Below are positions 3,101 through 49,327 of a stretch of DNA of 64,000 nt, piece after piece (the first letter of the stretch is position 1; each line of letters opens with the position of its first letter). Where the stretch lies: positions 48,863 through 112,862 of IMG/VR virus record IMGVR_UViG_3300025372_000010. One strand, written 5' to 3'. Origin of the DNA: a virus. Lineage: Duplodnaviria; Caudoviricetes. A program made the position numbers and the translations under genes. Below the pieces are notes generated by a model. The model was not told the origin of the DNA and did not search any database. It saw only the letters and a list, made by a program, of their open reading frames with translations.

Positions 3101-5731
3101 TGGATTCGTTTTGGTGAAACTGCTAGAAAGATATTAACTAAATATGGTGCAACTAAAGAAGATATCTATCATAATATAAATAATGTAACTGAAGATAATT
3201 ATAATGATATATCTTTTAGTTATGGAGAACCTATTGCTGCAGCTCAACCTGCTCCTTTAGAAACTACTGAAGATCAAACTGCAGGTGGTACTAATATTGA
3301 GCAAGTAGATCCTACAGCAGCTGAAACTCCTGCTGAGCAAGCTGTCACTACAGAATTACCTGATAATGTGATTGCTGGTATGGATACTGGTGCTCAACAA
3401 AATCAAGGAGCTAGTCAGTCAGTAGTTATTGGTAAACAAACAATCAATGTAGGTGACAGAATCACTGGTAATCCTGGTGGTGATTTAACTGTTACAGGTA
3501 TTAATTCTAAAGGTGATGTTACATTAGCTAATGATGAAACTCAAGTTACACTTCCTAAAGATGACTTAGCTCAACTAATGGCTAATGGATATAGTCAGAT
3601 AGTTAAAGCTGCAACAAAGACAACAGGCAAAGCTACTCCTAAAAAGACTACAGCTCCTGTAGTTAAGAAACCTACTTTTGAAAATGGTGAGATAAACAAT
3701 GTAGAGCAGACTCGTGCTGCTATGCTTAATCAAGCTAATAAGAAAGGTGGTGTTGATGATCAGTTAGAAAAAGAAACTCCTGGTGTAGTAGAAGGTAAGA
3801 AAGTAATTAATGGTGCTACTAAGATTAACAATCGCACTGAAGACTTTACAGCTACTACAGATAATAAAGGTAAAACTATTCGTCAGATTACTGGTGTAAA
3901 TAGTAACTACCCAATGATTATGGCTACTAGTCGTATTAATATGGGTACTGGTATTACATTAAGAGTAGATACTAGCTTAGCTAACTATGATGAGTATGAG
4001 TATATTAATACTAATAATGTAACTAAGCGTTCTAAAGAAGATTTCTTTGAGAATGGTAAAGTAAAACAGTCAGCTGTAGAATCTTTTCCAATTGCTATCT
4101 ATACTAACTATAATGGTCAAGAAGTAAAATTAGGTTACTTACCTACTGTTGAATGGGTAAATGCAAAGTATCCTAATGGATCTACGGTGAATGTCGTAGA
4201 TAAAACTTATGATAAAGATGGTAATGAACAAGATAATCTTGGACCTAACTTAGCTCAGTTGAGAAAGATTAGACAAGATTTGATGAATGGGTTTAATACT
4301 GCAGGTAAGACTGAATGGACAGCTATAGTAGATAATAAATCTGATGGTAATCTTAGAACTATATCTGGTGTTAATAAAGTAGCAGATGTAGTGAGCCCAG
4401 GTACACAGATTGGTATTATAAAAAATGGTGTTGTTTATACAGGTAAGAATGTAGAAGCTACAGGTCAGATTATACTTCCAAGTGAAGTATCTACTACTAT
4501 AGAGAACAAGAATACAGAAGGCTGGCCAGTTGTATTGATTAATACTCCTACTGGTAAAAGATTAGCAAGCTGGGTTAGTGTTCCAACATTGAATAAAGAA
4601 CATCAAGATCTTATTTTAAATGCTTGGAGTGCGTTCCATTTATTAAACAATAATGCTAAAGCTAACGAGCCACATGATACTAAGTCTAAAGCTTATGAAA
4701 TAGCTAGTGCAATATATGAAGCATATGGGGCTAAGCTTGCAGTAGATGAACAACCTAACTTTAAGCTTTTACAAGACTATGTTAATGACTACATCACTTT
4801 TACAGGTGGTAAGAATGATGAGAAGAATGGTTATAAAAAGTACGATCCATTGAAGCCAGGATCATCTTTATTGACTATATTGCCAAATGGTACTTTGATT
4901 ACATGGGTAGTTCAAACTGGTGTTGAAGCTAACGATAAAGTGTTAATGACTGATCCGTCCAGATTGACTGATGAGAATAAGAACAAGTTCTATAACTTAG
5001 CAGATCAAGTGCACTATAATATTAAGTTTAGTGATAAGAATAATAATGGTATCAACTCTGATAGTAAGATGAGATTTTTAAGTATGGTGGGTGATTCATT
5101 AATTAAGTCTGAGCCTATGACATATAATGAGCATGTATCTAATCTATTAGAGACAAACATAGAGCCAGGTATTCCTTTAGATCCTAAGCAACCAGATGGA
5201 GAAAGAGTTTATTTCTCTAACCCAGTATTGAATTTTAGCTTTACAGAGCCTACAGAAACTAAAGTTACCACTCAAAAAGAAAATGCTGCTGTTCCAGCTG
5301 AAACTACTCTTGTTACTACTAATATAGAATCTAAGAAAGCTGATATAGAAAGAAGAAGACAAGAGCATATTGACTTAATTGAGCATAATGAAAATGCAGA
5401 TGGTAGTGAAGAATCACAAGCATATGACACATCTTGGAGTAAAAAAAATGAATATGAATACTTTTCTGGTAAAACAAAGAAAGAAGTAGTAAATAAAATA
5501 AATGCTAAGTATGATGCTGAACTAGCTGCTTTAGAAGGTGGTAAAACCAAAACTGTAAAGAGCTTAGCTGATGAATTATTAAATATGGACTTTGGTGAAG
5601 GATTAACTGACTTTGGTAACTTTGATCAAGGCGTGATTGATGGAGATCTTCCAGGAGATAAGAAATCAATAGCAACTAAAGTGAATGATATAGTAAACGA
5701 TAAAGAAATAGATAAAAACTGTAACGGATAA
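185..5731 (+). CDS. Giant virion cargo/ejection protein 1 (1848 aa)
   Basis: Very long ORF directly upstream of the vRNAP. Gly/Ala-rich amphipathic N-terminal segments and a single Cys. Matches the crAss-like arrangement of three large cargo genes. Confidence 0.75.
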   Translation: MDSLNFLMPDNINTDNLVPQDNPTGSLLDILQTSGPGPSQPITFDPIKSFQFPSSPTSEAAAAPLFFDAQRTNVDRYTNSAYFKQLGFNPLEGNANEYKYGSMQTWGDTMGNALGGAWKLGANTFIQGWEGWGNMANALTSWDSSKLVGSPEQLYQSNQEQNAIMNKYAIFATPESDAGGVFNRKFFGDMVQQTGFALGTIAQFLSEELITYGLSTEFSLAKLGIKAPSWLGKVVTKSELLADMTKLGENIYKDRTFAEKFVENARKFVPFLETGEEMAKYSKAGAGAAQIAAIGVGGLRRTLAEANMSFTEARMEAANTYGDLYNKLYDEEVDKTGEVPSGDKLARMKEIAMKASSDNFFVNSGILMLSNRLQFDNLLGKFSFGREILGEGGGFAEDILKVTGKVGENETTKVYQKGLMGTPGLYGKIAEDFGKKEAAWQVAKSLGKHAFKWETSEGLQEVFQDLSNQSLQNYYYDLYHGIKGADFSPSLEKAWAQENQGNQGLKTFLMGALTGSLISPIDFAIGRAKTYGMSTAEQRQTREADVKDAVEMLNGFYENPNRYLNEHIANVKLQDHVAKTMDEAIANRDKYVFNNFRDSGFAKMVSAAIKTDMYESVMSTLRNYGESMTDQDFKEAFGMEKNKYNIDSIKGFFDKVASSVEEFHKNWKTLRDRYADSVIPEIYKDGTPEKKISLAAKRALDDAIEILATNSYKGQNAIVRATDLQTQMAATPTIGGSLENAFRILGHAGETAQEAYLLDQEITSLESADKIDRETRKLITAKKKQLAALTDWLKNQDALEKMGIEEKRRFNKARKSFRDYVNSKNEQAKLDVSIKNDDFEDIYKNFLDYIQLNSDAKQYVDAYNVLANPTKFILMHERMLDAILKTEETYKKEHEAEIKGEKPEAEEKTGSLADLMEKGLTVDEANPEKVEKEEAEKKNVDKQALETELHDAYRTYAQEAYEQGNTPAKPSEWIRFGETARKILTKYGATKEDIYHNINNVTEDNYNDISFSYGEPIAAAQPAPLETTEDQTAGGTNIEQVDPTAAETPAEQAVTTELPDNVIAGMDTGAQQNQGASQSVVIGKQTINVGDRITGNPGGDLTVTGINSKGDVTLANDETQVTLPKDDLAQLMANGYSQIVKAATKTTGKATPKKTTAPVVKKPTFENGEINNVEQTRAAMLNQANKKGGVDDQLEKETPGVVEGKKVINGATKINNRTEDFTATTDNKGKTIRQITGVNSNYPMIMATSRINMGTGITLRVDTSLANYDEYEYINTNNVTKRSKEDFFENGKVKQSAVESFPIAIYTNYNGQEVKLGYLPTVEWVNAKYPNGSTVNVVDKTYDKDGNEQDNLGPNLAQLRKIRQDLMNGFNTAGKTEWTAIVDNKSDGNLRTISGVNKVADVVSPGTQIGIIKNGVVYTGKNVEATGQIILPSEVSTTIENKNTEGWPVVLINTPTGKRLASWVSVPTLNKEHQDLILNAWSAFHLLNNNAKANEPHDTKSKAYEIASAIYEAYGAKLAVDEQPNFKLLQDYVNDYITFTGGKNDEKNGYKKYDPLKPGSSLLTILPNGTLITWVVQTGVEANDKVLMTDPSRLTDENKNKFYNLADQVHYNIKFSDKNNNGINSDSKMRFLSMVGDSLIKSEPMTYNEHVSNLLETNIEPGIPLDPKQPDGERVYFSNPVLNFSFTEPTETKVTTQKENAAVPAETTLVTTNIESKKADIERRRQEHIDLIEHNENADGSEESQAYDTSWSKKNEYEYFSGKTKKEVVNKINAKYDAELAALEGGKTKTVKSLADELLNMDFGEGLTDFGNFDQGVIDGDLPGDKKSIATKVNDIVNDKEIDKNCNG

Positions 5732-5734
5732 CAT

Positions 5735-8700
5735 ATGTCTTGTATATACACTATAAATGGTAAGCAGTATTCTGACTCTGAGGTTAAACAAGTCTTCAGT
5801 AGTATCCTAGCTGTTCCTGGTAATGAAAACTTATCGAATGAGGAACTAGTAGCTAAGATTACTGAGCTTAGTAAAGATAGATTTGTTGATGTAAATCTAT
5901 TTAGCCCATATCAAGAATCAGCTTACACTAACATCATCTTTTCTGAGGTTGTTGACCAACTTGGTGTTTTAAAACCTAAGATGGAGATTAAACAATCTGC
6001 AGGTAAAGTATTTGGTGATACTTATAGTCGTTTCAAGAATGAAGCTGCTAAGTTTAATGCTATCTCTGAAAAGATAACATCAGAAGAAGCTTACAATCAG
6101 TTTAAGCAAGTTGAGGGTGTAGCTGCAAAGTTTCCTGAGATTGCTGCTTTAAACTATAATCAGTTCAAGAGTATGGTTGATCAGTTCAATCATATTGTAA
6201 ATGAAGAGAACTGGAAGAAGTTTACTCAACTAGCTGAGCAAAAGCTTAGACAGCTTGGGTTAACTATTAAAGATGGTAATATTGTAGAAAAGAAGTTTGA
6301 TGCTACAGAGATTGCTAAGAGATTAGAAGAGGATCAGAATGATGAGAATGAACCAGAGTATGAAGATTCTGAAAGAGAAATCAATGAGTCATACGAAGAT
6401 GGTCGTGCATTTAGATTATCTCCTAAAGATACTGCTAGCTATCGTGTAAAGTTATTCTTATCTACTATTCCTAACTACGAGAGAAACATCTTTGGTAAGA
6501 AAGACTTTGTGTCTATGGACCAAGTGTTTGAAGACTTGTTGCAAACAGCTGCAACTCTTCCTGTAGTAAACTATAAAACCTTTACAGAAGCTTTATTATC
6601 TAAAGCTGAGGGTAAACCTTATTTACATAATGTAGTAGGTAAGTTAGATAGATTACAAAAAGACGGTAACGTAAAGCTTCGTAATGAAATCATTACAGTA
6701 TTTAATAAAGCCTTTACTGACCATGTGCTTGTTTTATGGAACCCTTCTGAAGGTGGTGTTAAAGTTAAAGTGATTAGCTCTAACCGCAATAGTATAATCC
6801 GCCAAATCAAGCAAGACTGGATTGAAGCTCAGAAAAGATCTGCTATTATCTCTACAGATACTATTGGTGATCTAGTAATAAATAAAGAGAAGGTTAAAGA
6901 GTTATATGATTCTTTAAAAGAAGCTAATAAGTCTAAAGATATCACTGATAAGAAAGCTTGGGTAGCTGAGTTCTTTAAATCAGTAGGTATTGACTTTGAT
7001 GCAAAGATGATTGATGCATTAGTAAAGAGTGCTAATAACGGTTTCTTCAAGTATGTACGTAGTGCTAACTTTGCTGCTATGTTCAGACCTAATGGTGTGT
7101 TTGATAACATCATGAAGACTTATTCTAAAGAGGGTGATGGTAAATCAGATAACCGCTATGAAGATTCTAATAATGCTATGATCCATGAGCGTGCATTTGA
7201 CTATCTAGCTCAGATCTTCTTTGACTTTAATGGTAATAAATATCAGACTGGTACTTTCCAGAATGGTGAGAATAAAACTATCTACTCATACATCCAACCT
7301 AGTTATTTAGAGACAGTTAAGAAAAAGCTTAATAATGGTGACGGTTATTTAAAACGTCTATCAGAAGCTTCTTTCTCTAAATCATCTGAGGTAGTTGCTC
7401 AGTTATTAAATAACCTTACAGAGAATAGTAATAACTTTGTATATCGTATTAGATATGCAGATAGCTTAAAGAATGACACTGCAGAGAAAGCAGGTATAGT
7501 TCGTAAGCGTATGAGCCGTAAAGAAATGTTATTTGATTCATTAGTTAAGTATATGAACTCTGGTAAAAATACAGGGTTGTATAACATGTTTACATTGTCT
7601 GATAAGACAGTTACGCCTGTTATAGAAATGACTAAAACTAAGCTTGATCCAACATTTGATATCTTATTACGTCCTTCTAAGAATACAACTGTAAGAACTA
7701 GCTTTGATTTCAAAGATGGTTTTGCAGATAAATTATACACCCTAGCTAAGTCTGAAATAGATCGTATGGTTGACTATGCTAATAATGCTAATAAAGCAGG
7801 ATTAGGTATAAACAACTTTGATAAGTCTAGTCAGATCTTTTATTTATTCCCAGCTCTTAATAACAAAGAGGATGCTGATCTTAAATCTATTGTAGATTCT
7901 ATACAAGCGGGTAATCAGCCATCTTTAGCAGATGAGAACTATATCAAGAAAGTATTAGTGGATGTGTTTAAAAATGATGTAATGAAGTCATTTAGAACTC
8001 TTACTGATATAGGATTGATTAAGAAGTCTGAAGCTTTAGATGAGAATGATAAGAAGACTATCTTATTAAACTATGATCAATTAGATAAAGACTATCTAGC
8101 TCAATATTCTAATCTAACAGATAAGCAAAAAGGAGTTATGATAATATCTGAATTTAAGTATAATAACTTAAAAGCTCAGATTAATAGTTTACAAGTGTTA
8201 GGTGCAGATCCTGCATTATTTTACAAGACTAAGATTGGAAAAGCTAAAGAAGCTCTTACTACTTCTGATGTTAACTCTATAGTAAAAACTACTATGGATG
8301 AATTCAGTAAGCGTGCTGCAATGTTTATTGCACCAGGAGCTCAAGGTACATTTGAGTGGACTGACTTAAATGGTCGTCCTGTTGATAGAACAAACTATGA
8401 TATAGTTACTATCAAAGATGTGGTTAAGAATGTAGGTGGTTTTGAGAAAGTTAATATTGCAGATGCTCAGGAGTTAGTAACTCTACAAGAGCATATTGAT
8501 AGATTAATGTCTGAAGGTCGTATTGACTTAGAAGACTGGCAGTCTATTACTGATAAAATAGAAAAGAATAAAGGTAAGTTTTATGAGCTTAGCGATAAAG
8601 AAAAGCAGATTGCTTTACAACCAGCTAAGCCTGTATATAGTTCTAATACTTTTGTAGATGGATTTAGTAGAATAGACTATATTAAATCTTCTACATACCC

Positions 8701-11700
8701 AATGATCCCTGAAGTAATTCAAGGAACTGAGTTAGATAAAGTTAGAGCTTGGATGGAGAATAATAATATTAGCTCAGCACCTTTTGAGTCTGCTAAAAAG
8801 ACTGGTATTCCTGCAGCTCCATTAGAGTTGTTTGATGCTAATGATAACTTTGTAGAGCCTACTAAAGAAAGATTAGCTGAAGTGAGACAAACTCTTAACA
8901 GAGAAGGTCTTCGTACACAGCAAGAGATCCCAGCTCAAAAAGATGAGATCAACGTAGTTTCTCAGATGGACCGTCAATTATTTGAGGGTTTACTTGGTAT
9001 TAAAGGATTTATGTTTGATGCTCATAGTTACACTGGCTCTGAACTTAAAAAGCTATCAGAAGCTATTCGTATTGCTTTCTTCTATAAGAACCAGCAGGTT
9101 TTGGCTGATAGATTAAATATAAAGATCACTGATAACAATGTAGTATTTAAAGATCAAAAAGCTTTAGCTGATTTATTAAAAGAAGAAGCTTTAGATAGAG
9201 ATTTCTCTGCTAATGATATTAAAGCCATCCAAACTAATGAGGATGGTAATCTTGTTATTCCTATCTACTTAATGGCTAAGGGTAAGAGATTTGAAGGATT
9301 AGTAACAAGTATTTTCTCTAAGTTAGTAAAGCTTAAAGTGCCTGGAACTAGTTTAGTACAGGTGTCTGGTGTTGGTACCAAAGTAAAAGAGTCTGAGCTT
9401 ACTGATAAAGTAAAGAATCAAATCATCTATACAGATGCTTATGATGCTTCTAAAGGATTACAATACATTCGTAAAGAAGCTACAACAGTTGATGATAAAG
9501 GTAATGTAAAGAAAGGTAAGGCAGTTCAACCTGCACAAGTATTTGTTTCTCAATATCTTAAAGACAAAGAAGGAAACTTAATAGACTTAACTAAGTATGT
9601 TAAGAAAGATGCTCAAGGTAGAATGATATTAGATAGTAATAAGATCGATAAAGACTTATTACAGTTTATTGGTGCACGTATTCCTAACCAAGGTCATTCA
9701 TCAATGTTACCTATAGAAGTGGCAGGGTTCTTACCTAGCTTTATGGAAAACACTGTAGTAGTGCCGGACGGTGTCACATCACAAATGGGATCTGACTTTG
9801 ACGTAGATAAGTTATACTCTTATATTAGTTCTATAGAGAATGTTACTGATGATAAGATCTCTAGTCAGAAGTTTGATAGCTCAATCTATAAGAATGACTA
9901 CGAATCTTTAATGAGTGCTTCAGAAGCTGAGTTATTACAAATGTACAAAGAAATACATTGGTCAGTGTTAACTCATCCGGATGTATTTGATAAGATCACT
10001 CGATCTACAGAGTTTCCAGATATTAGTAAAGAGATTGAAGTATTTGAGAAAGCAGGTTTATTAGAAGATAAGGTGTCTGCATTGCCTATGGACTTTGAAG
10101 CTCAGATTAAAACCTTTTTAGATAACCGTAGTGGTAAATCTGGTACAGGTATATTTGCTCAGATGATTTCATTCTTAGCTGAGCACCAAGATAAAGATAT
10201 CAAGTTAAAGTCTTTCTTAGATAACAATGATAATCCTATACAAGAGTCAGTTAAGTTCTTAAAAGACAACGGTGAAATATTAAAGCTATTTAGATTTACG
10301 GCTGAGGGTAGAAGTGAGACTGAAAATGGTGAGCGTTCTAAGACTGATAATACATCTATATTCCTTTCTGAATCAGTGGATAATGCTAAGAATAAGAACT
10401 TAGATAAGTTCAACTTAACTGTTGAAGCTATGAACGCAGTGCGTGCTGTGATAGGATTAAGTTCAGAAACTGGAGAGATTGCTGATATTAGATATGTGAC
10501 TAGATTGATGCCACAACCTATTATCAAGAACTACTTAAATGAAATAGAGTTATCTCGAGATAGCTTTAGCGATAAGTACACTAACAAGTTTGATATTGCT
10601 ACAAAGATGATTAACACTTATAATAGTTATTTATCTGATGTAGCTGAAATAGATATAGATCAAAGATTATTCTCTCCTGCTACATTACTAAAAGCTTTAA
10701 TAGATGGGAAAGACTTCGGTGAGAAGTTAATCAATGATGCAAAGAATGGTGTATTATTAAATAGTCAGCAACAAGCTCAGCTTAATGAGTATATAAATAA
10801 TCAAGTATCTATCTTAAAACTTTATACTCAATTAGATAATATTGGTTGGGCAATGGGTAAGTTGATGACAGGTACCAATGTTACAACAGCAGGTATTGGG
10901 TCAACTTTATTTGCTGTAGCAGATAAGTTAAGACAAGTAAAAACTGTTGCTCTTAATACTGTATTCCAAAACACTGAACAACTATTAGGTGATATTGCTT
11001 ATGATGGTACGATTATAAATCCTACTAGTCAAGCAGGACATGCTATGAATGTAGCTCTATCTTTTGGTAGAGATGTATTATCTAAGCTTGCACCTATTCA
11101 CTTTGGTGCATCGTTTGACCAATTGAGAGACAAAGTAGTTAGAGAAAGATTTAAAGATTCTAATATATCCAACTGGGGTAAGACTAAGTATATGGAGTTA
11201 AGTGAAGACTTAATGAAATCTGCATATGCTTACTTATTAACTAACCCTGAGTTAGGAATGGTTCAAGATACTCAAAATGATCGCACACGTTTACTTTATG
11301 GAGCTAACGGTGAAAGATCTTTAGGTGAGCGTATTATAGCTCTTAAAGAACAGCTTAAAGATACTAACTACTTTATAAATAGATTACAAGTTACAGCTCC
11401 TATAAATAAAGCTGCAGATCCTTATTTAGTTAAATATAGATCTCCATTCAGTCAAGATATAGATGAGCAGGCTAACAATAAAGGATTCTTAGAGTTAATA
11501 TTAAGCGGTGATAAAAACCAGATTGATATTGCTCGTGATCTAGTTACTTATGCATATCTTACTGGATATGATCAAGGATCTTCTTCTTATTTGAAGTTTA
11601 TCCCTGTAGAGTACTTAATGTTAAACCAGAAGTTTACTAACGGTTTAAAAGACTTTGCTTCTACTTTTGATGACATGGGTACCTTCTATAAGCAGTTTAT

Positions 11701-13612
11701 TCAGAACAATCCTGATAGAGCTCTTAATATGGGTAAGAAGTTATTTGAGGATGTCTTCTTTAAAAAGATAGACAGTGATGATGTAATCCATATAGCAGAT
11801 GATAAATTAGCGGATGCTTTATTAGTACAAATGCCTAAAGAGGAAGGAAACGGATATAAGTATGCTGATTACATTAAGGGTATAAAGTATGTAGGTGATC
11901 AAAGAAGAGTATATTTATTTGAAAGAGTTGTAGGCAGTAGAGAAGATGACAGTAGATCCTATAGACGTATACCTACATTAGGTAACGGAACTATATCTGA
12001 GTATGTATATGATTCTGAAGATGTTAAGTCTATCTTCTTTAATAACCTTACTCCTACTCAAAAGATGGATACTCTATCTACTAATCCAGAGAATCCATTC
12101 AGAAAGATTAAGATATACAATGCTCAATACTTTGACTTGAGATACTTAATCCCAATGGGAGATACCGCTACACAGTTTATTGGTCTAGACATAAGCAATG
12201 CTAGTAAGACTACTAAGACTGCATTAGAAGCTTATAAAGATAAATCTAATACAGGTGAGTATGCCCCAACAGATAAAGTTATTATCTCTGGTAATACATT
12301 ATTACAAACTGTAAAACCTAAGGAAGGAACTACTAAGTTAGATGTGTCTGATATTAATTCAGCTTATTCTATATTAGAGTCAGTATTTAATGATCACTAT
12401 GCTCCAATGATAGATAAAGCTATTAAAGCAGGTGCTGACTTTATGGTAGGTAGTTTAACAGGTATGGAAGAAGTTGCTAAGAAGTATTTAAGAAACGAAG
12501 GCTTAGCAGAAGATACTGATGATAAAGGAGTTACAACATTTAAGAACCCTAAGAGCAGTGAAAAGATAGAAGCTCAACCTACAGAGATTAATGATTCTGA
12601 TGTACCAACTATTAGTTTATTTGGTATAGGCGGTGAGCAAACTGCAAGTGAAGAAGAGTCTGCTGGTGCTTTTGGTTTTGAGTTTGCTAATGATGATGTG
12701 GCACCACAAGAAGCTACTCATATGATTACTGAAGGAGTAGAGAAAGCAGGACCTGTACAAACAGACGCTGATATAGTTAACAATTATACTAATGATCCTA
12801 GTAAACCTAGTACACTTAAGTCAGTGTTAAGTAAAGTTGGTACAAATACAGATAATGAGTTCTATAAGACACTAGTATCCGTATTTAGAAAAGCAGGCTT
12901 CCCTGATATAAATGTTAGTTTCTCTGAGGCTATTAATAATCCTGGAGAGTATAATTCAATAAATGGTTCTATAATTATTAATCCAGCTCTTGCTATATCA
13001 GACAATACTAGATTAAACCGTCAGCAAAATTTAGAGTCTACTATTATACACGAAGCACTTCATGCATACATTTCAGATATCCTATCTAAGATTAGCTCTA
13101 ATGATAAGAGTCTCACTGAAGCTCAAAGAGTATTTGGAACTGCTTTGAAACAATTGTATAAAACTACTGTAGAAAAAGTAATGGATGACCCGCAGCATTC
13201 TGATAGATTAGTTGCTACTAATAATATGATCAAAGAAAAAGGTTATATTAGTACTGAAGATAAAAGCATGTACTATGGCTTAACTTCTGTGGATGAGTTT
13301 GCTAGTATGTTATTTACTAACCCAACCTTCCAGCAGTTTATGAATACTACAATAGTACAGGAGACAGGAAAGCTTTCTGTAATAGATAGATTCAAAGCTT
13401 TATTAGCTAAATTACTTAAGAGCTTAGCTAAGAGCTTAAATATTGTGACAGAAGGATCTGCTTTAGAACAAGGAGTGAATGACTTATTTAATCTTATTAG
13501 TGTAAGTCAAGAGAAAGCTGGTGGTGAAACATCTGCAAAAAATCAGTTATCTTTGTTCAGCATGTCTACAAGACAGATGGAAAACTATACCTTAGAAAAT
13601 CAATGTAAATAA
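5735..13612 (+). CDS. Virion-associated double-psi beta-barrel RNA polymerase with C-terminal zincin-like domain (2625 aa)
   Basis: RIPNQGHSS...QMGSDFDVDKLY with DxDxD at 9794-9808, typical of crAss-like/phi14:2 gp66 RNAPs. HEALH at 13049-13063 followed by DEF. Confidence 0.92.
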   Translation: MSCIYTINGKQYSDSEVKQVFSSILAVPGNENLSNEELVAKITELSKDRFVDVNLFSPYQESAYTNIIFSEVVDQLGVLKPKMEIKQSAGKVFGDTYSRFKNEAAKFNAISEKITSEEAYNQFKQVEGVAAKFPEIAALNYNQFKSMVDQFNHIVNEENWKKFTQLAEQKLRQLGLTIKDGNIVEKKFDATEIAKRLEEDQNDENEPEYEDSEREINESYEDGRAFRLSPKDTASYRVKLFLSTIPNYERNIFGKKDFVSMDQVFEDLLQTAATLPVVNYKTFTEALLSKAEGKPYLHNVVGKLDRLQKDGNVKLRNEIITVFNKAFTDHVLVLWNPSEGGVKVKVISSNRNSIIRQIKQDWIEAQKRSAIISTDTIGDLVINKEKVKELYDSLKEANKSKDITDKKAWVAEFFKSVGIDFDAKMIDALVKSANNGFFKYVRSANFAAMFRPNGVFDNIMKTYSKEGDGKSDNRYEDSNNAMIHERAFDYLAQIFFDFNGNKYQTGTFQNGENKTIYSYIQPSYLETVKKKLNNGDGYLKRLSEASFSKSSEVVAQLLNNLTENSNNFVYRIRYADSLKNDTAEKAGIVRKRMSRKEMLFDSLVKYMNSGKNTGLYNMFTLSDKTVTPVIEMTKTKLDPTFDILLRPSKNTTVRTSFDFKDGFADKLYTLAKSEIDRMVDYANNANKAGLGINNFDKSSQIFYLFPALNNKEDADLKSIVDSIQAGNQPSLADENYIKKVLVDVFKNDVMKSFRTLTDIGLIKKSEALDENDKKTILLNYDQLDKDYLAQYSNLTDKQKGVMIISEFKYNNLKAQINSLQVLGADPALFYKTKIGKAKEALTTSDVNSIVKTTMDEFSKRAAMFIAPGAQGTFEWTDLNGRPVDRTNYDIVTIKDVVKNVGGFEKVNIADAQELVTLQEHIDRLMSEGRIDLEDWQSITDKIEKNKGKFYELSDKEKQIALQPAKPVYSSNTFVDGFSRIDYIKSSTYPMIPEVIQGTELDKVRAWMENNNISSAPFESAKKTGIPAAPLELFDANDNFVEPTKERLAEVRQTLNREGLRTQQEIPAQKDEINVVSQMDRQLFEGLLGIKGFMFDAHSYTGSELKKLSEAIRIAFFYKNQQVLADRLNIKITDNNVVFKDQKALADLLKEEALDRDFSANDIKAIQTNEDGNLVIPIYLMAKGKRFEGLVTSIFSKLVKLKVPGTSLVQVSGVGTKVKESELTDKVKNQIIYTDAYDASKGLQYIRKEATTVDDKGNVKKGKAVQPAQVFVSQYLKDKEGNLIDLTKYVKKDAQGRMILDSNKIDKDLLQFIGARIPNQGHSSMLPIEVAGFLPSFMENTVVVPDGVTSQMGSDFDVDKLYSYISSIENVTDDKISSQKFDSSIYKNDYESLMSASEAELLQMYKEIHWSVLTHPDVFDKITRSTEFPDISKEIEVFEKAGLLEDKVSALPMDFEAQIKTFLDNRSGKSGTGIFAQMISFLAEHQDKDIKLKSFLDNNDNPIQESVKFLKDNGEILKLFRFTAEGRSETENGERSKTDNTSIFLSESVDNAKNKNLDKFNLTVEAMNAVRAVIGLSSETGEIADIRYVTRLMPQPIIKNYLNEIELSRDSFSDKYTNKFDIATKMINTYNSYLSDVAEIDIDQRLFSPATLLKALIDGKDFGEKLINDAKNGVLLNSQQQAQLNEYINNQVSILKLYTQLDNIGWAMGKLMTGTNVTTAGIGSTLFAVADKLRQVKTVALNTVFQNTEQLLGDIAYDGTIINPTSQAGHAMNVALSFGRDVLSKLAPIHFGASFDQLRDKVVRERFKDSNISNWGKTKYMELSEDLMKSAYAYLLTNPELGMVQDTQNDRTRLLYGANGERSLGERIIALKEQLKDTNYFINRLQVTAPINKAADPYLVKYRSPFSQDIDEQANNKGFLELILSGDKNQIDIARDLVTYAYLTGYDQGSSSYLKFIPVEYLMLNQKFTNGLKDFASTFDDMGTFYKQFIQNNPDRALNMGKKLFEDVFFKKIDSDDVIHIADDKLADALLVQMPKEEGNGYKYADYIKGIKYVGDQRRVYLFERVVGSREDDSRSYRRIPTLGNGTISEYVYDSEDVKSIFFNNLTPTQKMDTLSTNPENPFRKIKIYNAQYFDLRYLIPMGDTATQFIGLDISNASKTTKTALEAYKDKSNTGEYAPTDKVIISGNTLLQTVKPKEGTTKLDVSDINSAYSILESVFNDHYAPMIDKAIKAGADFMVGSLTGMEEVAKKYLRNEGLAEDTDDKGVTTFKNPKSSEKIEAQPTEINDSDVPTISLFGIGGEQTASEEESAGAFGFEFANDDVAPQEATHMITEGVEKAGPVQTDADIVNNYTNDPSKPSTLKSVLSKVGTNTDNEFYKTLVSVFRKAGFPDINVSFSEAINNPGEYNSINGSIIINPALAISDNTRLNRQQNLESTIIHEALHAYISDILSKISSNDKSLTEAQRVFGTALKQLYKTTVEKVMDDPQHSDRLVATNNMIKEKGYISTEDKSMYYGLTSVDEFASMLFTNPTFQQFMNTTIVQETGKLSVIDRFKALLAKLLKSLAKSLNIVTEGSALEQGVNDLFNLISVSQEKAGGETSAKNQLSLFSMSTRQMENYTLENQCK

Positions 13613-13614
13613 TT

Positions 13615-16600
13615 ATGGCTTGTTACGTTAAAAAGAATGACCTTGGTTTAATCACAGAAGTAAGACTTCCTGATGGAAAAACTATGTCTAAAGCTTACTA
13701 TGACATCTTACAACATGTTCAAGAAGGTATTCCTTCTGAGCACATTATGAATACTTTAGCTTCTTTACGTGAGTATGAAGGTAAATATATCTCTGATACA
13801 AAGAGTAATGATCAACGAGCTCTTGGATTATACATGCATTTATATGACCAGTCTTTTAGACAATGGTATGGTGATTGGACAACTGAGCCAAAGATTAATA
13901 ATGATGCTACTATTACTAGAGCAGATGGAGAGACTCGTTCTATCTATGACTTTGGTAAATATAAGAATAATGCAAGCGAGACTTTATATTCCGCTAGAAC
14001 TGCAGCAACAGGTAGATTACTTAAACAAGTAGATTTAACTGTTAAGGAGTTAAGAGACCGTATTAAGCTAGCTATTGATGCCCGTGAGAAATCTAAGCTT
14101 AACGCTGACTACACTAAAGATCAGAAGATCGAGAGAGAAAGATACTATAACAAGATTATAAAAGTACTTAACCAACAAGTTGAGACTCTTATAAAGAATA
14201 ATAATGTTGACTATGTGTTAGCTCAGGGATTGTCTGATATGAAAGTCATTAAGAACATATTATCAGGTCCTATAGTCAGTCTAACAGAGATCAGATTTAT
14301 GGATGACATCGTTCAAGCTTGGACAAATATTGAAACTGTACTAGGTATACAGTCAATTGATGATCTACCAGAAGATAACGAAGAGCAAAAGAATAGAAAG
14401 GAAAGAGCTACACAAATATTAAATAATGCTGATTTTGCTAAAAAAAGTATTGCTAACTTAGCTAAGAAGCAAATTGTTGAAGCTTATAACAACTCTATGC
14501 CTGAGGGTCAAGAGATCACAGTAAAAGACTTAAATGCATTTAAAGATGTATCTATGTGGAAGTCTTTAGCTAGAGATATCACAACTGTAGATAATAAGTC
14601 TGTAGCTTATTTAGCTAAGATTATCAATGAAGCTAATCTAAAGATAACTAAAGAGCACAACAGAAACTATGAGTCTATAGATAAGGCATATGATGATATC
14701 AAGAATCACCCAGAGATTGTTAAGAATGGATTTAACATATTCATCAAAGAACAAAAGGGAGCTCTTGGTACAAGTACTTTAGGATTGACTAATAGATTCT
14801 CTCAGGTGTTTTATGATACTATGAGAAATCAAGGAGCCATCTTAAATGCTAAAATTGAGGCTGCCGGGGAAGATAAAGAAGCAGTAAAAGCTGCTTACAA
14901 AACTTATAATGATTGGGTGGCTAAGAATACTGTGTTATTTAACTCAGCTCCTTTCTTAAACACTGAAGCTTATACAGATGCACAAAGAATCGAAGTAGTA
15001 AATGATCTTAAGAAACAAGGATTCACTGAAGATGAGATTGGCGATATGATTCGTGAAGCAGGTAAGAGATACCAAGATTATAATGAGTATGCTGAAAAGT
15101 TCAGAACTACTTTATATCTAGATATTATGTCTGGTGACTTGGAAGTACCAGAAGGAGAAAATGAGGATGAGTTTGTTAACAAGCGTGTTGAAGAATGGAA
15201 AAAGATTAACGATCCTATTGCATACATAGAACACATTAACAACTTGAATCAAGGATTGTTTTCTACATTCTCTGCTTTTAAAGGCGGACGTTATGCTGTT
15301 AAGTTTCCTCAGAAGACAGTTGACGGTAAAGATTCTAACTATTATGATGACAACTTTACTAAGATTGCAGCTGATAAGAAGCTATACAACTTCTATTTAT
15401 TCTTTAGAAACTTTGTAGAAGAACAACTTAGTTATCTTCCTCAGGAAGAAATCGATAAGCTTGGCTCTAACTTCTTACCAGTTATTATGGAAAGAATGGC
15501 TAAAGAATATGGTTTTAGTAGCTTAAAAGAAGTGAGTAAGAATATGGGTGATTGGTTCTTTAAACAGTTAACTAGTGTTGACTATAAAGAAAATAAGCGA
15601 ATAGATCCTATTACAGAAAAAGTAAGAAGAAGCTTTACTACTAAATTCATCAATGAAGATGTAGACACTGAAGAAAGATCTAAAGATATGGTCTTGATGA
15701 TGAAGCTATTTAGTGATATGGCTTTGATATATAAACACAAGATCCAAATTCAGGATCAGGTAGATAGTATTAATGATATTATACAAAGTGCAGATGCAAC
15801 TATTGTACAAAACAATCTTGAAAAGCGTGAAGAAAAAGGTAAAGCTCCTGCTAATCTACAGAACATGGTGGGAAGTGCGGTGCTTAGATCTTTTTATCAA
15901 GTGGCACCAGAACCTCAGGGGTTAATTCAAAACAGAAGATTCTATAATGCATTAGAGCTATTAAGCTTTGGTACGGTTAAATCTAAAGAGTATAAACAAG
16001 CTCTTGTTTTACAACAAAGTATACAAGATCTATCTAAAAAGTTAGAGTCTGACACTTTGAAAGAAGCAGACAGACTTAAGTTAGAAGAGCAGGTTCGTAA
16101 CTTAAAGAAAGAATACTATGAGCTTGGAGGTCGTAACCTAAGTATGAGCTCTGTATTGGATGGTATGAATAAACTTACTCGTCAAAAAGGTATTGGTCTT
16201 AACCCTTTTGCAGCTATTAGAAACTTAGCGGTGGGTGGATTGAATAACTTCATCCATGCTTATGGAGGAGAAGACTATTCTACTAAAGACTTTTACACTG
16301 CTACAGGTATTATAAAAGACAGTGCAGCTAAATATCTTACATGGGGTAATAGTAACTCTATTAATGCTATGAAGATATTGAAGTTCAATCTAGATTCTAA
16401 GATTGTTGATGGAGAGGATGAGATCTTTAAAGGAAGTGTAAGTGCTATTAATAAAGCTAGCACATGGGAAACTATTAAGAAATATGTACCTAGTCCTTTT
16501 GGATTGATGAGATCTACTGACTATTTGTTTAAATCTCAAACATCTGTATCTATGATGTTAGCTCAGAAAGTTGAGACTAGTAAAGGTACGTTTAACTTAT

Positions 16601-48610: not shown

Positions 48611-49327
48611 TTACCAATTGATTGTGAATTGAGGACCGTTGTTCTTTTTAATAATATCGTTAGCCTCAATAAAGATATTATTGCAGTCCCATACTGTTTT
48701 AGTATAAGCCGCTGACGCAGGATGCGATGCTTTTAATACATAGTGATTAGGACCAATCATAGATTCTAACTCTTGAGCTTGTTTACCTAATAAGATAAAA
48801 ATCACTCCTGAATTAGTTAGATTAATCATGTCTAACACATACATAATAAAGTCATTCCAGATAGAATAGTGTGAACCCACTTTATCTATCTGACAGGTTA
48901 AAGCCCTGTTAAGTAATAATACACCTTGATTAGCCCAACGAGTTAAGTTAGGATCTTGGTGAGTCGGAAACTCTTGATATACAGTTTGTTCTATAGCCTC
49001 AAACATATTCTTGAGACTAGGTTGTGGTTTAAGAGTATTACCACATGAAAAAGCTAGACCGTCTGCCACTCCAAAAGTGGGATAAGGATCTTGGCCTATC
49101 ATTACAATCTTTAAATCGTTTACAGGACATTCTTCAAACGCTCTAAAGACTTGTTTTAAAGGAGGAGTAAATCTCCTACCTTCTTCTTTTTCATTATATA
49201 ATTTATCTAGTATCTTATCAAAGTCACTAGACATAATAAATCCCCTAAGCTTTGTAGTCCAACCCGAAGGGGTAAGCTTATCTATTAATTTTGTCTTGAT
49301 CTCCTCAAGATTGATAGTTGGTATCAT
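48611..49327 (-). CDS. ung: Uracil-DNA glycosylase, family 1
   Basis: GQDPY, GLAFS, PSLKN, WANQGVLLLN, HPAS. Confidence 0.93.
   Translation of the reverse strand: MIPTINLEEIKTKLIDKLTPSGWTTKLRGFIMSSDFDKILDKLYNEKEEGRRFTPPLKQVFRAFEECPVNDLKIVMIGQDPYPTFGVADGLAFSCGNTLKPQPSLKNMFEAIEQTVYQEFPTHQDPNLTRWANQGVLLLNRALTCQIDKVGSHYSIWNDFIMYVLDMINLTNSGVIFILLGKQAQELESMIGPNHYVLKASHPASAAYTKTVWDCNNIFIEANDIIKKNNGPQFTINW

Follow-up and report, generated by a model that had tools for sequence, protein, structure and literature searches.

The 64,000-nucleotide stretch of DNA analyzed here (the window) covers positions 48,863 to 112,862 of the IMG/VR virus record IMGVR_UViG_3300025372_000010 (Duplodnaviria; Caudoviricetes) and is the 3' part of that 113-kb record. 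The window is opened by three co-oriented giant open reading frames (ORFs), P1, RNAP (the RNA polymerase protein) and P3, and in this report we examine the cysteines (Cys) of the three encoded proteins and how these cysteines may join one protein to the next (Table 1). The three proteins comprise 5,734 residues and contain four Cys, all of which are terminal. A script found zero internal Cys and zero internal stops, so an earlier note on this DNA, in which four Cys had been counted at the adjoining termini of three giant proteins by reading the translations, was exact and had missed no internal Cys. The remaining 60-odd ORFs of the window contain 1.25% Cys (159 of 12,724 residues), at which rate the 5,734 residues of these putative cargo proteins would contain approximately 72 Cys. 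At the nucleotide level, both of the window junctions (P1/RNAP and RNAP/P3) read TGT..TAA..ATG.nCT.TGT, with gaps of 2-3 nucleotides (nt). DNA of the window is present in freshwater metagenomes, of which the two samples that hold it best may be the source sample. Sequencing runs with shares of 0.10-0.13 are left out of this result.

Table 1. Positions in the window of the three giant genes, their cysteine codons and other features of the encoded proteins (aa, amino acids; pLDDT, predicted local distance difference test).
Feature	Position (nt)	Strand	Basis
P1, giant putative cargo protein, proposed first chain link, 1848 aa	185..5731	+	ORF; matches 17-locus P1 profile
RNAP, crAss-like virion type, proposed middle link, 2625 aa	5735..13612	+	PHROG 16227; tblastn Fpv1, phi14:2; PDB 6VR4
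P3, giant putative cargo protein, proposed last chain link, 1261 aa	13615..17400	+	ORF; matches P3 profile
P1 Cys1846, codon TGT, sole P1 Cys, third from C-end (..KNCNG)	5720..5722	+	
RNAP Cys3, codon TGT, facing P1 C-end	5741..5743	+	Nearly invariant in alignment A1, invariant in alignment A3
RNAP Cys2624, codon TGT, penultimate (..NQCK), facing P3 N-end	13604..13606	+	Invariant in alignments A3 and A4
P3 Cys3, codon TGT, sole P3 Cys	13621..13623	+	Invariant in alignments A2 and A5
DFDxD catalytic motif, RNAP residues 1354-1358	9794..9808	+	Invariant D1354, F1355, D1356, D1358 in 22 homologues; regex
HExxH zincin-like motif, RNAP residues 2439-2443, C-terminal domain	13049..13063	+	Invariant H2439, E2440, H2443
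RNAP C-terminal tail, residues 2589-2625: low-confidence linker, then predicted helix 2607-2623 reaching Cys2624	13499..13609	+	AlphaFold2
P3 N-terminal small alpha/beta domain (predicted), residues 1-110	13615..13944	+	AlphaFold2, pLDDT 76-93

By its core motif and its sequence similarity the middle protein is a crAss-like virion RNA polymerase (phi14:2 gp66 type, two-barrel, DFDxD). RNAP matches PHROG 16227, annotated as 'virion structural protein' (E=5.8e-45), as well as the giant structural proteins of the Flavobacterium phages Fpv1 and FpV4 and the Cellulophaga phage phi14:2 (22-28% identity by tblastn), and residues 191-1367 match the solved phi14:2 virion RNA polymerase 6VR4 with E=1.6e-20. 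Neither P1 nor P3 matched a family in Pfam or PHROGs. Homologues of all three proteins are virion proteins in cultured relatives and, to judge from the homologues found in phi14:2 and crAss001 virions, RNAP would be packaged in the virion and injected.

The distribution of Cys in this block was determined in relatives of the window. Eighty IMG/VR loci were fetched with the RNAP profile A1 (a single-protein query retrieved none), and phi14:2, crAss001 and Fpv1 were added to them. Profiles for P1, RNAP (R) and P3 were built from 17 clearly split loci, and every large ORF was classed with these profiles. A tabulation of this kind across crAss-like genomes had been set beforehand as a test, and its outcome is that the homologues carry terminal Cys that are paired at split junctions. 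The homologous block of phi14:2, gp078-gp077-gp076 (g067-g066-g065 in the paper; vRNAP 6VR4), shares with the window the order of the three genes and the four-Cys pattern, with Cys as the last residue of gp78, as residue 3 and the penultimate residue of gp77, and as residue 3 of gp76. It differs from the window block in its low identity (22%), in the location of the HExxH motif, which is found in the downstream protein gp076 (residue 245) and not in the RNAP protein, and in a junction that lies elsewhere relative to the domains. In crAss001, the proteins gp47, gp50 and gp49 were found in virions as RNAP-associated cargo (PMC10172136) and retain the terminal Cys: gp47 has a single Cys, third from the end; gp50 has Cys 5, a Cys ninth from the end and one internal Cys; and gp49 has a single Cys 5. 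The crAss001 proteins differ from those of the window in that gp47 is encoded on the other strand and bears the HExxH motif (residue 2157), gp50 has the internal Cys, and the phage is a gut phage of an anaerobe.

The same placement is seen in larger sets of homologues. Nearly all database homologues of RNAP (n=120, 26-100% identity) have Cys at residue 3-5 and among the last three residues, with 0-2 internal Cys, and window-like Cys placement is found in 85 of 106 database proteins that were matched by the RNAP profile only. The distinct cargo ORFs (n=156, 421,839 aa) contain 154 terminal and 95 internal Cys, so that internal Cys make up 0.0225%. The residue immediately before the C-end Cys (position -1) is K or R in 55%, compared with a background of 12.9%, and by general thiol chemistry such a neighbor favors a reactive thiolate. 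The earlier note had put the chance of placing all four window Cys at the junctions at ~2e-11. This figure is post hoc, and the stronger evidence is conservation, as the same placement is found in relatives of 22-28% identity. Judged from these sequences, the terminal Cys pattern is a rule of the family and is not due to chance.

The gene fusions and fissions that have occurred in this block can be treated as natural experiments. Four architectures were found among the 80 loci: three separate proteins, P1 fused to RNAP, RNAP fused to P3, and all three fused. In the following counts near-duplicate loci are included, and the P1/RNAP numbers are those obtained after artefacts were resolved in L030 (an over-long ORF), L056 (a missed P1 profile match) and L066 (a frameshifted RNAP, the last piece of which ends ..KKKCK). 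At the P1/RNAP junction both facing Cys are present in 38 of 40 split cases and in none of the 31 fused cases, where the fused protein has a Cys-free N-end, and at the RNAP/P3 junction the pair is present in 47 of 48 split cases and in none of the 27 fused cases. The outer ends of the block do not carry Cys (0/35 at the P1 N-end and 0/44 at the P3 C-end). The fused blocks, which include Fpv1 gp33, L046, L049, L060, L073, L082 and others, have the same domains in the same order and are Cys-poor but differ in having a peptide bond in place of the proposed link and in lacking the junction Cys. The polyproteins of L046, L049, L060, L073 and L082 (5,005-6,647 aa), which match all three profiles and have both ends within the locus, contain zero Cys. 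The same is true of L028 and L077, which run off the locus end, and of L063, in which the P1 profile was unmatched, and the eight whole-fusion polyproteins span 4,447-6,647 aa. Among database proteins, the N-end Cys alone is retained in 22 of 25 R+P3 forms, the C-end Cys alone is retained in all ten P1+R forms, and three of four whole fusions (P0121, P0131 and P0135) are Cys-free.

These changes have occurred repeatedly. A tree of the RNAP core has at least nine changes of junction state for P1/RNAP and at least eight for RNAP/P3. Phylogenetically independent contrasts gave seven in the same direction, none in the opposite direction and one tie for P1/RNAP (p=0.016), and about six to zero for RNAP/P3 (p=0.03). 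The comparative data require that the two Cys of one junction work together, and that they are dispensable once a peptide bond joins the proteins. The head-to-tail pairing put forward in the earlier note is supported in that the pairs come and go with fission and fusion, the outer ends are without Cys and the full fusions are Cys-free. A pairwise alignment of fused and split junction regions gave an unconserved linker with no informative register. Two other readings of the junction Cys were tried and rejected. A pairing of the RNAP N-end with its own C-end and of P1 with P3 was rejected because the two Cys that remain after one fusion are always those of the other junction, and a reading of the junction Cys as protease sites was rejected because fused polyproteins exist without Cys at the junctions.

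It is also conceivable that the terminal Cys act singly, each forming a bond with the capsid, portal or tail, or serving as a modification or packaging tag on every separately made protein. Two 12-residue N-terminal tags, M-x-C-P-N-x-x-S-x-E-W and M-A-C-K-Y-x-x-N-G-x-E-Y (the latter a beta-hairpin in the P3 model), recur by clade on RNAP or P3, and their occurrence on both proteins resembles that of a portable signal. In addition, ORFs upstream of the block in L033 (1707-3146, 479 aa) and L076 (339-1406, 355 aa) bear a single Cys in the last or third-last position with no obvious adjacent N-terminal Cys partner. Such a role is nevertheless improbable, as the P1 N-end and the P3 C-end never have Cys, fusing one junction removes exactly the two facing Cys while the other pair stays, and packaging and ejection can do without a Cys anchor, given that the full fusions are Cys-free.

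A further case of fission is found in L025 (2925-8363), where the N-terminal module of RNAP is a separate 238-aa ORF that is 43% identical to residues 1-148 of the L024 RNAP. In this module Cys is found at residue 4 and at the penultimate residue, and the rest of RNAP begins MSLANC (Cys 6). Both pieces thus have facing Cys, and therefore the additional split carries an additional pair. The module and the remainder are separated by a 4.7-kb insert with ORFs of 486 and 454 aa that belong to no Pfam family. In L079 (15310-16390), a RepL-like ORF and a GIY-YIG/T5orf172-like ORF, which are probably a mobile element, lie between RNAP and P3, and the facing Cys pair is retained.

The similar DNA at the two window junctions might suggest that the Cys codons are a by-product of a junction nucleotide signal (translational coupling, a ribosome binding site or a terminator), or that they are there by chance. 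This explanation is refuted by several observations. In crAss001, gp47 is encoded on the other strand and well away from the gp50 start, and still has the C-end Cys; the pair persists where the partners are 5.4 kb apart (L025) or are separated by 1.5 kb of inserted DNA (L079); the codons are mixed (128 TGT and 34 TGC); the terminal Cys lie anywhere from 1 to 15 residues from the protein end across loci; and the pattern persists at 22-28% identity. The crAss001 gene on the opposite strand, together with the genes that lie between partners in L025 and L079, also overturns the proposal of the earlier note that the proteins are linked in gene order, as the link follows protein ends. Because the junctions differ relative to the domains, with HExxH in different proteins, the Cys track protein ends and not homologous positions. 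It also follows from the location of HExxH in different proteins that the split points of the block have shifted relative to the domains, or arose independently.

A precedent for a bond between such Cys comes from the cyanopodophage A4 (Anabaena phage A-4L), in which a disulfide between Cys1715 of gp27 and Cys5 of gp26 was described in the cryo-electron microscopy structure of the pre-ejectosome (PMC12002296; PDB 9K2V). These are the single Cys of gp27 (1717 aa) and of gp26 (1114 aa). As in the window, the large ejected proteins are encoded by adjacent co-oriented genes, the sole Cys of the upstream protein is third from its C-end and the sole Cys of the downstream protein is close to its N-end. 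Both window junctions have this A4-type signature, that is, an upstream Cys a few residues from the C-end and a downstream Cys within the first six residues. The Cys of gp27 is borne on a C-terminal helix (PMC12002296), and in the window RNAP a helix at residues 2607-2623 is predicted on a low-confidence tail. In the AlphaFold2 model of the last 400 aa of RNAP, this tail is a flexible segment of 37 residues with the terminal helix at the Cys, and in the P3 model a beta-hairpin (residues 5-7 and 13-17) begins directly after Cys3, at the start of the folded N-terminal domain. The A4 system differs from that of the window in having one link between two proteins as opposed to a chain of three, and there is no RNA polymerase in the A4 chain. 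Furthermore, the bond is given in the A4 paper as a structural detail and not as a rule, without a tie to gene fusion (PMC12002296). The A4-type signature is retained in phage Pf-WMP3 (L088), in which ORF26 has a single penultimate Cys and is followed by ORF25 with a single Cys 5; the similarity between Pf-WMP3 and A4 is 23% identity over a short stretch only.

We propose, with a probability that we would put at roughly two in three, that tail-to-head clasps consisting of one inter-protein disulfide each join P1, RNAP and P3 into a single covalent, unbranched chain. Cys has been purged from the putative cargo, as in other ejected phage proteins, except at the termini that meet the next protein. 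Inside the particle, one clasp would tie the C-terminal tail of P1 to the RNAP N-end, and a second would tie that of RNAP to the N-terminal domain of P3, giving a polyprotein-like chain of three in which each clasp replaces the peptide bond of relatives with fused genes. As the links would lie within a few residues of the ends, the chain could be threaded through the portal and tail. Since links at the ends keep the chain unbranched and hence threadable, this would account for the restriction of Cys to the termini in proteins that otherwise avoid it. Upon arrival in the host cytoplasm, which is reducing, the links would open and the separate proteins would be released. The purpose of the clasp may be 1:1:1 co-packaging, a stable pre-ejection assembly or ordered ejection. 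That a disulfide forms in the crAss-like lineage, when it does so and to what end are matters that we infer.

A disulfide is the simplest chemistry for the junction pair and is supported by the A4 case. The same chain topology could be kept with another chemistry, such as a metal ion (e.g. Zn or Cu) shared by the facing Cys or another reversible docking link, as the covariation with fission and fusion shows that the two Cys act jointly and not how they do so. A metal link could also form prior to packaging in the reducing cytoplasm, where a disulfide could not. However, each junction offers only two thiols, no conserved His, Asp or further Cys was found in the N- and C-terminal contexts, and the sole solved case with the Cys signature, that of A4, is a disulfide, which makes a metal site or other docking link an unlikely choice. 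The earlier note had proposed junction disulfides or a shared metal site as the link; the pairing and the topology hold, and a disulfide would be assigned to crAss-like phages by analogy with the A4 precedent.

Several points weigh against a covalent chain. Conditions in the host cytoplasm are reducing, and no thioredoxin or glutaredoxin gene was found in the 113-kb record; therefore, the bond would form only after packaging or lysis, and co-packaging would not be explained by the bond alone. The gut crassviruses retain the Cys pair despite their anoxic surroundings. Drobysheva et al. suggest that the fused polyproteins are cleaved after assembly and, if this cleavage is real, a permanent covalent chain would be unneeded in those phages. 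With respect to the precedent, the crAss P1, R and P3 profiles match no A4 protein and Foldseek finds 9K2V at E=0.29 only. As the crAss proteins lack detectable similarity to A4 gp27 and gp26 in sequence or fold, the precedent is one of analogous mechanism and not of descent.

In addition, three loci (L034, L052 and L083) break the pair rule. In L034 (7896-9080) and L052 (7836-9056), a 394- or 406-aa ORF with CxxC at residues 41-45 lies between P1 and RNAP; this ORF matched no Pfam family. In both loci P1 is without a C-terminal Cys and RNAP retains Cys 3. In L083 (17016-19189), RNAP and P3 are separated by a ferritin-like ORF and another of 345 aa, and in place of a terminal Cys RNAP has two, at 27 and 29 residues from the end.

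Giant ejected proteins with few Cys are also found in other phages. Cys suppression in ejected proteins is already known for the Schitoviridae, and in N4 and DEV a giant virion RNA polymerase is likewise ejected with partners and shows strong suppression of Cys. The Schitoviridae proteins differ in being essentially Cys-free, termini included (0.00075% in the virion RNA polymerase), so they have no clasp. The window proteins do not follow this Cys-free type, as four conserved terminal Cys are present. The virion RNA polymerase of the Schitoviridae is of a type unrelated to that of crAss-like phages.

With regard to novelty, full-text literature searches found no paper mentioning terminal Cys of crAss cargo proteins, and the text of the phi14:2 preprint contains neither 'cys' nor 'disulfide'. 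Virions of crAss001 have other inter-protein disulfides, in the tail, which fits the disulfide reading; in the atlas of this phage (PMC10172136) the tail disulfides are the only ones given and the cargo Cys are not discussed. The earlier note knew of no description of such links, which holds for crAss-like phages and for the arrangement as a rule, and does not hold for the bond itself, one example of which had been described in A4 (PMC12002296). No description appears to exist of a three-link chain built around a virion RNA polymerase, or of the exchange of such a chain for gene fusion.

The Cys rule bears on how the Crassvirales, the group to which the most abundant human gut phages belong, store and inject their protein cargo of approximately 0.7 MDa, of which the RNA polymerase that begins the infection is a part. 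The rule can be read from sequence, indicates which protein ends touch and predicts a covalent P1-RNAP-P3 thread, and it would account for the varying number of genes, from one to four, that encode the block. As an aid to annotation, we suggest that facing terminal Cys in otherwise Cys-free giant proteins can be taken as a mark of ejected partners. A broader proposal, which we regard as tentative and somewhat doubtful, is that terminal-Cys clasps are a general device that evolved more than once, with which podophages chain their ejection proteins interchangeably with gene fusion, and that reduction in the cytoplasm frees the active RNA polymerase. If this is true, such a clasp would place the delivery of the first enzyme used in infection under redox control.

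The region of the record directly 5' of P1 (G000:C1:37958-49028) contains four consecutive Cys-free ORFs of 1015, 524, 1099 and 1024 aa, which are preceded by a 1289-aa protein with eight Cys. With the four Cys-free ORFs added to P1, RNAP and P3, the cargo block would therefore comprise seven proteins and ~9,400 aa with four Cys in total.

The C-terminal domain of RNAP that bears HExxH is confidently folded in the AlphaFold2 model of the last 400 aa. In a Foldseek search of the PDB these 400 aa weakly matched zincin proteases (E about 0.05), and neither they nor the N-terminal 600 aa of P3 had a PDB match at E<=0.001. A complex prediction with RNAP 2326-2625 and P3 1-650 scored 0.23 with the mark at 0.32 (22-row alignment each), which counts neither way on binding.

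Two minor observations concern RNAP homologues. In L058 (13357-13442) a conserved motif contains an 84-nt break in the RNAP frame, and the second ORF begins MPLEIVGFLP. This break has no Cys and may be due to either a small intervening sequence or a misassembly. The RNAP homologues P0017-P0098 contain varied added domains, including helicase (PF13604, PF13245), YbiA-like (PF08719), AlkB-like (PF13532), SprT-like (PF10263) and kinase domains, and from these domain matches it seems that the injected RNAP protein serves to carry accessory enzymes.

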